Shown here: one piece after another, positions 10,395 through 22,657 of the stretch
Layout of the letters: every line of letters starts with the position of its first letter
How positions within the stretch are numbered: the stretch's first letter is position 1
IMG/VR virus record: IMGVR_UViG_3300015371_000009
Span: 1 to 64,000 of that record
Length of the DNA stretch: 64,000 nucleotides
Source: a virus
Direction: 5' to 3' (one strand)
Notes under the pieces: generated by a model
What the model saw: only the letters and a program-made list of their open reading frames with translations
What the model was told of the DNA's origin: nothing
The model's database searches: none
Translations under genes and position numbers: made by a program

Positions 10395-11507
10395 TTATCG
10401 TGGCCTCAGTGAGCCTTTTGATGGGCCGCCCCTCTTTAATGGTTTGCGCATCCTGTCCCATTCCGCCAGCGTGTCAGGCAGCGGACCGATTTCGGTCGGC
10501 GAGTCCTTTTCGTTGAGCAGGAATTTTTCCAGCGCCATGAACGTGTCGAATGCCTCGCCAAGCACCTTGTCGCTGATCGAATTGCGGCTGTCCGGATGCA
10601 GGGCGCGCCTGATTTTGTTGAACGTGTCCTTATCCATCAGGCCCCTGCGCCGGGCGTAGAGTTCTTGCGCCTGCTCGATTCTCTTCCTCCAGAGCGGCAG
10701 TACGATTTCATCGATGCGTCGTTTGACTTCATCAAGCACGCGCATTTCAAAACTCAAGTCGAGCTTGCGCTGGTGGGTTCGCATTGCCGCGTCGAGCTTC
10801 TCCTGGGCCGACATCGACAGCGCCACTTCCGGCGGTGGCGCGACTTCGCGGCGACCTTGCTCTTGTGCGACTGCGGTCTTGACCACTTGCACTGAAGCCA
10901 GACCGGATTGGGCAGCGGCCTGTTCGAGCGTGTAGCCCTTGTCCAGAACCAGCGCGCCGGCAAGATCGGCCTTCGCCGCTTCGGTTCGGCGGCGCGGTCC
11001 ACTGGTGCTGCCCTTGGGCCGACCCGCCCCCTTCGGATTGCTCGCGGTCTTGGCAGATTTTGATTTATTCCGTTGGAATAAATTACCGAGGTCCTTGCTG
11101 ATCGTTCCCTGCGTCACATCCAACGCCTCCGCGATCCGCTCCATTGTCCACTCGCGCTCGCCGTAGAGATATTTAGCAATGCGTTGGCGCTCGGGCTTGG
11201 TCATCGGCTTGGTGCCGACGTTTGAGGCGATAGCGATCTTCAAGCGCTCGGCATCGGCTTCGTCGCCTTCGCCAAGTTCGAGCATCACAACGACGGGCTC
11301 GATCTTCAACTCCTTGGCGATCTTGAGCCGACGATGGCCGACCAGCACGACGCCGCGCTCGTCTTTGTAGGCCGGGAATTCCTTGCGCCAGCCGAATTGC
11401 TTCATCGATCCGCGCAGCTCGGTATCGTCATCACCGTCTAGCAGGCGGATGTTGTCGCGAAACTCACCGGTCTTTGGGTTGAATGGATCGTTGAGCTTGT
11501 TTGTCAT
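10395..11507 (-). CDS. ParB/Srx-like N-terminal domain plus HTH protein
   Basis: LRGSMKQFG...VLVGHRRLKIA; HTH MERIAEALDVTQGTISKDL. Confidence 0.75.
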   Translation of the reverse strand: MTNKLNDPFNPKTGEFRDNIRLLDGDDDTELRGSMKQFGWRKEFPAYKDERGVVLVGHRRLKIAKELKIEPVVVMLELGEGDEADAERLKIAIASNVGTKPMTKPERQRIAKYLYGEREWTMERIAEALDVTQGTISKDLGNLFQRNKSKSAKTASNPKGAGRPKGSTSGPRRRTEAAKADLAGALVLDKGYTLEQAAAQSGLASVQVVKTAVAQEQGRREVAPPPEVALSMSAQEKLDAAMRTHQRKLDLSFEMRVLDEVKRRIDEIVLPLWRKRIEQAQELYARRRGLMDKDTFNKIRRALHPDSRNSISDKVLGEAFDTFMALEKFLLNEKDSPTEIGPLPDTLAEWDRMRKPLKRGGPSKGSLRPR

Positions 11508-12961: not shown

Positions 12962-13020
12962 GCGACGGCCGGCCGTGTCCAGAAAGTTGCGCTCGGGTGA
13001 AGTGAGAACGGACAAAGAAT

Positions 13021-13286
13021 CTGCGGGTGGTTTTGCGGGTGGTTTTTGTCACTTTGCGGGTGGTTTTGGCCATTTTGTTCGCATTCGTTCTCATGTGAAA
13101 ACGGCTCCCGATTTTGGCGGAAGCCATTGACGTGAAAGGTGTTTTCTATGGCGCGCTCGGAGGGATTCGAACCCCCAACCCTCGGCTTCGAAGGTCTACG
13201 TTGGATCGACCAATTGTTGTTGATGCGCCAGCAGCTTAGACCGTCTTCAGCCGGCGCTGCGGGTGGTTTTGCGGGTGGTTTTTGTC
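13021..13286. mobile_element. attP site: tRNA-derived core plus arm-type repeats
   Basis: Identical 30-mer ctgcgggtggttttgcgggtggtttttgtc at 13021-13050 and 13257-13286 (extra monomer at 13055-13067) flanking a tRNA 3' half next to the integrase. Confidence 0.85.
13149..13194 (-). other. 3' half of tRNA-Arg (anticodon loop CT-TCG-AA to CCA), att core
   Basis: Minus strand ccttcgaagccgagggttgggggttcgaatccctccgagcgcgcca; T loop and CCA present, no D arm or 5' acceptor strand. Confidence 0.85.
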
Positions 13287-20399: not shown

Positions 20400-21110
20400 T
20401 CAGGATGTCGTTGTTGTTGTTGATGCTGTCGCTGCTGGTTTGGATTTCGCGCTGCGTTGCTGCGCCTTGTTGATGGCTGTCCAGGCGTGGACGATGCGAT
20501 CCATCTGCTCAGCGAACGCGGCGGTGCTTGGCCACATCTTGGCTTCCAACAAATCGGCGAGCTGCCGCGCGTGGAACGTGGCTTTCAGCCCGCTGTATCT
20601 CCGGTTGAGGTCTTGCTGATGGTCGGTCAGCGCGCGGCCGTGCAGATGATCGAGCCCGCCCTTCAGCGCGATCGGCCTGCCGTCGCTGGCTGAAGTGGCG
20701 AAGCCGCGTTCGATCTTGTCGATCTGATCAAGCGGCAGCCGCACGACTTCGGAAATCTGATTGCGCTCGTAGCCGTACTCCAGCAGACGGATGATCGCGT
20801 TGCGCACCGAATACTGGTCGAGCTGATCGCCATGTCCGACGTTCAGCCGCACGGCGTCGGCATAAAGGTCGGCCTCACTGGCGTAGGTCTTCAGTTCGAC
20901 TTCGCACTCGGTGAGGTCGAGCCGTTTGTAGGCGAGATAGCGATGACGGCCGTCGACCAGTCGGTACGTCACCGAGTCCACAGTCAACGGAGGGAATGTG
21001 GCTCCAGCTTTCGCGGCATGAACCAGCCGCGTGGTGTTGAAGTCATTGACGCCAGAGCCTCTCGGATAAATGCTGTCGTCGATGATGATCTGACTGAGAA
21101 GCATTTTCAT
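20400..21110 (-). CDS. ParB/Srx-like domain protein directly downstream of the array
   Basis: IYPR...FPPLTVD...LVDGRHRYLAY; ATG lies about 5 nt after the last array unit, whose AGGGA could be its RBS. Confidence 0.8.
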   Translation of the reverse strand: MKMLLSQIIIDDSIYPRGSGVNDFNTTRLVHAAKAGATFPPLTVDSVTYRLVDGRHRYLAYKRLDLTECEVELKTYASEADLYADAVRLNVGHGDQLDQYSVRNAIIRLLEYGYERNQISEVVRLPLDQIDKIERGFATSASDGRPIALKGGLDHLHGRALTDHQQDLNRRYSGLKATFHARQLADLLEAKMWPSTAAFAEQMDRIVHAWTAINKAQQRSAKSKPAATASTTTTTS

Positions 21111-21115
21111 TTTTC

Positions 21116-22060
21116 AATTCCCTGCCTTGCCGTGCCACGCCCCGCCGCACCCGACCGTGCCCAACCGAGCCGGGCCCTGCCGGAGCCGCAAAAAATGGAT
21201 TGGACGAATCCCTGCCTTGCCTTGCCAGACCTCGCCCCGCCACGCCCGGCCTCGCCAGACCTAGCCGCGCCCAACCCGGCCTCGCCCGAAAATTGATTGA
21301 ACGAATCCCTGCCTTGCCTCGCCGTGCCCCGCCCAGCCGAACCAGACCCGACCGCGCCGAGCCTTGGCTTGCCCAGCCGCGCCCTGCCGGACCCAACCTG
21401 AAAATTTGAAAACAATTCCCTGCCTTGCCGCGCCGCGCCAGACCCAACCGCGCCGTGCCATGCCCGGCCGCGCCTCGCCATGCCGCGCCCCGCCGTAAAA
21501 AATTGATTGATCGAATCCCTGCCTTGCCGTGCCTCGCCATAGCCGGCCGCACCTGACCAAACCCAGCCCGGCCGCACCCAGCCGCGCCTCGCCGCAAAAA
21601 ATCGATTGAACGAATCCCTGCCGTGCCACGCCGCGCCTCGCCCGACCAGGCCACGCCTCGCCAAGCCCTGCCTAATAAGGCCGTCGCAAAAATCGATTGA
21701 ACAAATCCCTGCCTTGCCCTGCCGTGCCCGGCCGCGCCTCGCCACGCCTAGCCACGGCTTGCCTGACCCCGCCGCAAAAATTGATGAACTATTCCCTGCC
21801 TCGCCTTGCCGTGCCCCGCCGCACCCGGCCAGACCGCGCCGAGCCGGACCTGACCAAGCCAAGCCTCGCCTGACCTGACCGCGCCAAAAACCTGACTGCA
21901 ATCTTTGAAAACAATTCCCTGCCTTGCCGCGCCGCGCCGCGCCTCGCCCCGCCAAGCCTTGCCAAGGCTTGCCATGCCTCGCCGTGCCTCGCCAAATTGC
22001 TGCCGTTGAAAAATTCATTTGAACTATTCCCTGCCTTGCCGTGCCTCAGCTCGCCCCGCC
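21116..22060 (-). ncRNA. array of 10 (GGY-NN)n units; putative guide RNAs
   Basis: About 141 phased pentamers, about 134 with RCC on the plus strand (GGY on minus), in 10 blocks separated by linkers like aaaaatcgattgaacgaatccct. Confidence 0.85.
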
Positions 22061-22657
22061 TCAATGAATCGCGTACTCCACGACGCGGAAGCGACCGAAA
22101 CGTGGTCGGTAATCTCCACATCCAATTCGATTTCCGGCGTCGGCCAGAATGTCGACGATCAACCGCGGGTTTTTGATCAGCTGAATGTCGTGTTCGATCG
22201 TGCACGTCGCCGACCATTGTTCGAATTTTGGTCTGGCACGCACGACACCGGCGCGCATGACGCGAACGCGGCGGCGATCGATGGCGTAACTGGTCAGCGG
22301 ACTGCCATCGACCGGATGCACGAGTGGCACCAAATCCTCGACGGCGCTGATATGAGCAAGCGCACTGCGCATTGAAGCGCGCTTGATCTTCCAGGCCGAT
22401 GCTGCAGCCAGCACCGCGCCGACAAACATTTCGCCCTTCATGCAAAGATTGCCATTTTCGTCACGATAGGTGCCGGCCTCTGCCTCAACCTCCGGCTCCG
22501 GGATGCGCGTGCCGCGCTTGGCGTCGACGTTGGCGCCAATTGATGCCGGGTTATGGGTGAGCAGCGGCTTGATGCCGACGACTCTGAAAGTCACCTTTCC
22601 GCTGATTGGCGGCTCAGTCTCCAGCTTGGTCATCGGTGGTGTGGTCACGTCGAGCAT
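22061..22657 (-). CDS. stand-alone Cas7/RAMP-like protein
   Basis: N-terminal strand FRVVGIKPLLTHN, middle RRVRV...VVRARPKFEQW, C-terminal Gly-rich loop AGNRIGCGDYRPRFGRFRV; GAGGAG RBS; stop codon abuts the array. Confidence 0.75.
   Translation of the reverse strand: MLDVTTPPMTKLETEPPISGKVTFRVVGIKPLLTHNPASIGANVDAKRGTRIPEPEVEAEAGTYRDENGNLCMKGEMFVGAVLAAASAWKIKRASMRSALAHISAVEDLVPLVHPVDGSPLTSYAIDRRRVRVMRAGVVRARPKFEQWSATCTIEHDIQLIKNPRLIVDILADAGNRIGCGDYRPRFGRFRVVEYAIH

Follow-up and report, generated by a model that had tools for sequence, protein, structure and literature searches.

The window, by which we mean the whole stretch of DNA analysed (64,000 nt, positions 1 to 64,000 of IMGVR_UViG_3300015371_000009, a record of 87,982 bases), carries on its minus strand a locus consisting of two genes with an array of short repeats between them. 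The gene at 22061–22657, vipr, is predicted to encode a 198-aa RNA-binding effector of the RAMP fold. The gene at 20400–21110, an accessory gene (Vap), encodes a 236-aa protein with a ParB/KorB-like N-terminal fold and a helical, HTH-like region. The record (~88 kb, circular) is a virus record with a terminal repeat, and genes for an integrase, RecT, YqaJ, terminase, portal, capsid and tail sheath were found in it. This gene content and the terminal repeat mark the record as a temperate phage. Rhizosphere metagenome runs were found to contain it, and its host is probably alphaproteobacterial, judging from the nearest named related locus.

The array is made up of tracts of GGY/NN pentamers on the minus strand, nine of them 11–18 units long and the tenth only 6. 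The short tract (22031–22060) follows directly after the vipr stop codon. It is followed by tracts at 21919–21993 (15 units), 21796–21885 (18 units), 21709–21773 (13 units), 21618–21687 (11 clean and three partly degenerate 5′ units), 21519–21593 (15 units), 21420–21494 (15 units), 21309–21398 (18 units), 21212–21286 (15 units) and 21122–21186 (12 clean units and one degenerate), with a repeat spacing of 87–123 bases. Each tract closes with a constant GGCAG unit, and after it comes an A/U-rich tail of ~21–37 nt that starts with GGA(T/A)T; the ten tails lie on the minus strand within 21100–22030, the last of them extending into the accessory gene's start codon. No consensus fold was found for the tails, nor was the pseudoknot that is described for the SUSP1 clade only. 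The scaffold was 96% intact while NN was variable: the 138 scaffold units parsed comprised 133 GGY, 3 GCC and 2 GCT. On the plus strand the scaffold appears as GCC/ACC spacers between the dinucleotides. It was in this form that the original prediction had listed nine dinucleotide strings, which proved exact in their starts and in all their dinucleotides (126/126); that list lacked the tenth, short tract and, in every tract, the constant final unit (AG).

Tracts of at least four units occurred nowhere else in the 87,982 bases, and 100 dinucleotide shuffles yielded no tract of at least six units. Hence, the array is not a product of chance. Contigs from four public runs, which may include the source sample, covered parts of the array with 0–1 differing letters, and this agreement speaks against an artefact of assembly. 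In run X7, one contig passed directly from 21016 to 21479, so that four tracts and the beginning of the accessory gene were missing; this contig also had an unlike end and may represent a chimera or a variant.

An open reading frame for a Gly/Arg-rich protein of 303 aa (21107–22018) spans the array, its stop overlapping the next start codon, and the array might on this ground be taken for a gene. However, an equally long frame was obtained in 329 of 500 pentamer shuffles, the array has a period of five and not three, and related arrays lie variously before, between or after the genes. A coding role is thus hardly credible, and the frame was rejected as a chance product by the pentamer shuffles.

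We compared the array with those of 32 vipr-related loci, several of which are near duplicates. All 32 had tracts of at least nine units on the vipr strand, and none had such tracts on the opposite strand. In 56 related guides the last three units had entropies of 1.9, 1.8 and 2.8 bits, compared to 3.5–3.8 bits further 5′. The two to three units closest to the tail hardly vary, suggesting that the address is carried by units 1 to n−3. In one related array (L001:6542–7212) NN was mostly GC, GA and AA, with repeated blocks; this array may be freshly duplicated or unprogrammed, and may bear on the origin of guides.

The pyrimidine of the scaffold was not used at random. GGT was found in 15 of 24 units before C, against 10 of 104 units otherwise (p=1e-7), and within this array (21122–22060) it stood before C or T but never before A. 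For the related loci, the share of scaffold T was 29% before C, 26% before T and 13% before A and G. Eight of the nine tracts folded less stably than their all-GGC version. The enrichment of T before C, along with the weaker folding, suggests selection on the RNA for unstructured guides, and GGT before a pyrimidine, lowering self-folding, is a possible guide-design rule. These data also bear on whether the array is a simple tandem repeat that does not serve as guides, or a VIPR array in decay. Some related arrays are indeed low in complexity (L001), and most guides were left without a target in the searches described below. Nevertheless, NN varies within a scaffold that is 96% intact, both genes (vipr and vap) are whole, and the scaffold T enriched before C points to selection on the RNA; we regard such a repeat or relic as most improbable.

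The product of vipr was characterized by profile, structure model and aligned contact residues. Homologues numbered 160, and the alignment comprised 114 of the 120 homologues listed. The only PDB match of the profile (E up to 10) was 36PP, the Vipr of SUSP1 (E=3.8e-16), and the identity to the SUSP2 protein was 27%. The model had a pLDDT of 92.7, and its top Foldseek matches were Csm3/Cas7, with a TM-score of about 0.5. According to 10.64898/2026.04.26.720927, the RNA contacts of SUSP1 Vipr are E71, M72, R138, D177, W178 and R179; these align with E76, M77, R142, D182, Y183 and R184 of the phage protein. No like residues were aligned with the DNA-clamp lysines/arginines K33, R39 and K82 of SUSP1, H17 lying outside the alignment. 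The protein is a small single-RRM RAMP with a thumb and a G-loop, and it is located away from any CRISPR locus. By homology and predicted structure, 22061–22657 encodes a Vipr.

Class 1 CRISPR RAMPs (Csm3/Cas7) share with this protein the fold, the G-rich loop and, as stated in 10.64898/2026.04.26.720927, the formation of a filament on guide RNA. The present locus differs in that no CRISPR repeats or cas genes were seen at it, in its neighbours (YqaJ and RecT) and in its specificity, which resides in gapped dinucleotides and not in contiguous spacers. An Rfam search gave no match at the array, CRISPR included. A class 1 CRISPR-Cas system was rejected, as there was no Rfam CRISPR match, the repeats were pentamer tracts and no cas operon was found.

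The accessory protein matched the ParB-like PHROG phrog_1033 (E=1.4e-9). It had 83 homologues, and in 80 aligned sequences G54 and R57 of the GxxR motif were invariant. The model (pLDDT 94.4) had KorB, ParB and Noc as its top Foldseek matches, over ~140 of the 236 residues and with 16–20% identity. Pfam ParB_N was detected in 6 of 80 family members and was absent from the phage accessory protein itself. The gene was near vipr in 26 of the 32 related loci, several of which are near duplicates. Like the ParB-CTPase clamps (KorB of plasmid RK2, ParB and Noc), the protein has a ParB-N fold and an intact GxxR phosphate-binding motif; unlike them, it matches over a partial length at low identity, and no parA was seen among its gene's neighbours. 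When the family profile was run against the gene after vipr in SUSP2 (vap1 by position), the score was ~0 bits, indicating no likeness. In the searched parts of the VIPR texts (10.64898/2026.04.26.720920,.720927, 2026.10.15.759431 and 2026.10.21.760802) and of the 720920 supplement, no ParB-type Vap is named and the word 'ParB' occurs 0 times; figure labels and data tables S1–S4, which lay outside that search, may classify the accessory gene.

KorB is described as a sliding clamp that is locked into a repressor by a partner (PMC11790492), and the nucleotide preference of ParB-type clamps is not predictable from sequence (PMC12704722). By its fold and by analogy with KorB, the accessory protein might strengthen silencing as a nucleotide-gated DNA clamp, a possibility to which we would give somewhat less than an even chance; it suggests how Vaps may boost silencing. 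By eye, an AGGGA was noted where the last tract closes with its constant sequence (21107–21125), eight bases before the accessory start codon; it may double as the ribosome-binding site of the accessory gene.

Published VIPR arrays consist of tracts of 9–16 GGY/NN units and a tail, and their guides recognize double-stranded DNA while skipping single bases that mostly fall on the wobble position, rival elements being silenced (10.64898/2026.04.26.720920). Repression of transcription by Vipr binding was shown for SUSP1, as given in 10.64898/2026.04.26.720920 and.720927. Compared with the described systems (SUSP1 and the Pseudomonas fulva type II; 10.64898/2026.04.26.720920,.720927 and 2026.10.15.759431), the locus has a homologous Vipr, GGY/NN tracts with a 3′ tail, a two-gene phage locus, no self target and a predicted target in a rival element with the skip aligned with the wobble. 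It differs in four respects: the ten tracts form one block between vipr and vap; the tails are A/U-rich, of 21–37 nt and free of a consensus fold, as against a ~40-nt pseudoknot in the SUSP1 clade; the accessory protein is ParB-like in fold, with no likeness detected between it and the product of the SUSP2 gene after vipr; and the predicted target is a primase instead of a recombinase. The locus thus has a Vipr gene, tracts, 3′ tails with a shared GGCAG-GGA(T/A)T start, a vap predicted to act on DNA and a phage location, but not the vap1-like accessory protein of VIPR type II. We conclude, with a probability of roughly 0.9, that it is a phage-encoded VIPR system with about nine predicted vrRNAs whose guides are most likely directed against rival mobile elements. 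It is a real, intact VIPR locus, with a plausible target. To the family it contributes a large set of guides, carried by a phage from soil.

The original prediction had proposed that one target base is skipped after each dinucleotide, with the skip falling on the wobble position. This is the published VIPR rule (10.64898/2026.04.26.720920), and the locus is a VIPR; with the rule in print, the proposal was right but not new, and the wobble-skip code is not a new core finding. NN usage in the array fitted best to sense-strand codon positions 1–2 (r 0.73–0.76; 0.15–0.72 for other registers). Since antisense positions 2–3 reach 0.72 without the end units, this codon-register fit is only a hint.

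Targets were sought for the guides at several levels. The search that had been proposed, with gaps of 0–3 and shuffled strings as controls, was carried out in this genome and showed no excess at any gap, so that no self target stood above the shuffles. Gaps 0, 2 and 3 were covered locally, and the public collections were scanned at gap 1, with exact 9-unit patterns in viral contigs for seven of the nine long guides (tracts 21796, 21309, 21212, 21519, 21122, 21618 and 21709). These seven scans gave 0, 2, 1, 0, 0, 0 and 1 exact matches, and four matches in seven scans is the chance rate. Tracts 21796, 21519, 21122 and 21618 had 0 viral matches each. The single viral match of tract 21212 lay outside the wobble frame. 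Tract 21309 had 2 viral and 24 metagenome matches, all with flanks at background, and its 13-unit pattern with 3 mismatches was found in 0 of 201 genomes. The protein-like reading SVPQERRAEFLQALG, which had been put forward for this tract (U21311), hence led to no target, the flanks of the 26 exact-core matches agreeing in 3–9 of 18 bases. Neither the 32 related loci nor 20 regions taken from records of related phages contained a target for the guides of the array, and pooled guides (147 and 58) run against related loci and phage regions showed no excess at any gap. Guides read as peptides gave nothing convincing against Vipr and Vap homologues. Six of the seven guides scanned were thus without a credible target.

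The exception was guide 21709–21773, for which the original prediction had read GQKVYVEAR from the reverse complement of U21711. This reading resolves to GHNVYVEART, a motif of RepB-type primases. The guide's 9-unit exact viral match fell within a RepB-type primase gene (PF16793), where it kept the reading frame and placed the skip at codon position 3; the 10.6-kb record concerned also has an integrase. Units 1–10 read G-H/Q-N/K-V-Y-V-E/D-A-R-T, and the consensus among the 120 primase homologues listed is G-H-N-V-Y-V-E-(G>A)-R-T-V. The tenth unit (Thr), which was outside the search pattern and is unmatched in the viral match itself, is consensus in 90 of 108 motif rows; the motif was parsed in 108 of the 120 listed homologues, 12 rows being unparsed. 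Of 256 proteins of the family, 79 matched at least 9 of 10 units (12 matched 10/10 and 67 matched 9). The mean best score of the guide against the family was 8.08 of 12, compared to 4.6–4.8 for shuffles, and no other guide of the array scored above shuffles against primases; when 143 guides of related loci were pooled, the best excess among them was 1.3. The motif ranked 9th of 208 windows in conservation. The match runs from the first unit of the guide up to the constant ones, the three unmatched units being those nearly constant in the 56 related guides.

At the DNA level, the guide scored 18, 17, 13 and 18 of 20 in four primase loci, and three of these had 17–18 of 20 at gap 1 versus 12–14 at gaps 0, 2 and 3. 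No 20-of-20 site was present in the four loci, the 12 perfect cases being proteins. With all 13 units, the best primase site seen scored 20 of 26, below the 80% cut of the VIPR papers.

The phage itself has no RepB-type primase. Named primase homologues came from Bradyrhizobium, Mesorhizobium, Aureimonas and Methylobacterium, the named members being Hyphomicrobiales; 0 were in named phages and 3, all distant, in plasmids. Comparison of the phage's called genes with six primase-element regions revealed no homology, so no helper-satellite link was found, and the other guides of the array had no matches on the primase elements. One such element (in G174, L126:14859 to L127:5513) is small and integrated in a chromosome, with an integrase, a primase-helicase, a terminase and a baseplate hub; it appears satellite-like and recalls the minimal satellites described for SUSP1.

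The same search produced an equally neat near-match in host phoB, according to which the phage would tune the host phosphate regulon. With up to 2 mismatches, phoB was matched in 126 of 401 genomes as against 4 control matches; 18–19 of 20 bases agreed in most of the 126 genomes (12 rows had 1 mismatch), 29 of the 30 loci retrieved could be read as PhoB, and the skip fell on the wobble position. However, unit 8 (GC, Ala) was mismatched in every phoB row listed and none was perfect, whereas primases do match perfectly; moreover, phoB is one conserved gene and counts as one event. We consider phoB a very unlikely target.

As the phoB near-match shows that such coincidences occur, the primase match could itself be due to chance in a genuine VIPR whose true targets are all unsampled. 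The chance expectation for a 10-unit string of such make-up is ~0.5 matches in 2.36e11 residues (50%-cluster protein library), the primase family was chosen by the match itself, and no second guide matches the primase elements. On the other hand, the tenth unit agrees with the family consensus although it lay outside the pattern, the match extends from unit 1 to the start of the constant units, the motif is among the most conserved windows, and the family is mobile, with named members in the Hyphomicrobiales. A chance match is thus rather unlikely, and the probable target of guide 21709–21773 is the primase-helicase gene carried by a small element with an integrase. This amounts to one specific target prediction, wobble-aligned and within a replication gene.

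Our data concern the anatomy, homology, fold and co-occurrence of the components, and the filament, gapped pairing and repression in the following scheme are taken from the VIPR family. The array and vipr would be transcribed together on the minus strand, and processing at the tails would yield about nine separate vrRNAs of 85–120 nt. By homology with SUSP1, Vipr subunits would coat each RNA, one per pentamer, with GGY hidden and NN presented. NN would then read double-stranded DNA with every third target base skipped, and binding of Vipr-vrRNA would silence transcription. The vrRNA of 21709–21773 is predicted to pair with the template strand of the primase gene, and the most likely targets of the guides are mobile elements that compete for the same alphaproteobacterial host. 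By analogy with KorB, the ParB-fold accessory protein would act as a clamp. A bolder version, in which this clade couples the Vipr-vrRNA filament to a nucleotide-gated clamp of the ParB/KorB type that is loaded or locked where the RNA directs it and extends silencing over kilobases from there, with the primase motif and possibly also phoB as targets of the same guide, seems unlikely as a whole. If true, it would amount to an RNA-programmed sliding clamp, a compact programmable long-range repressor.

Elsewhere in the phage, a second ParB-like gene was observed at 10395–11507. The sequence at 13149–13194, beside the integrase gene, is the 3′ half of a tRNA-Arg(TCG) in reverse complement and likely the attP core. 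Its best matches to tRNA-Arg(TCG) genes were 85–89%, with a maximum of 89% in 61 genomes, and when it was used in a search for the host, 0 of 401 genomes matched within 2 mismatches, so that the host was not found by this route. Several copies of the short motif GCGGGTGGTTTT were seen by eye at 13020–13060 and 13260–13285, flanking the attP-like core; these are possibly integrase arm sites.
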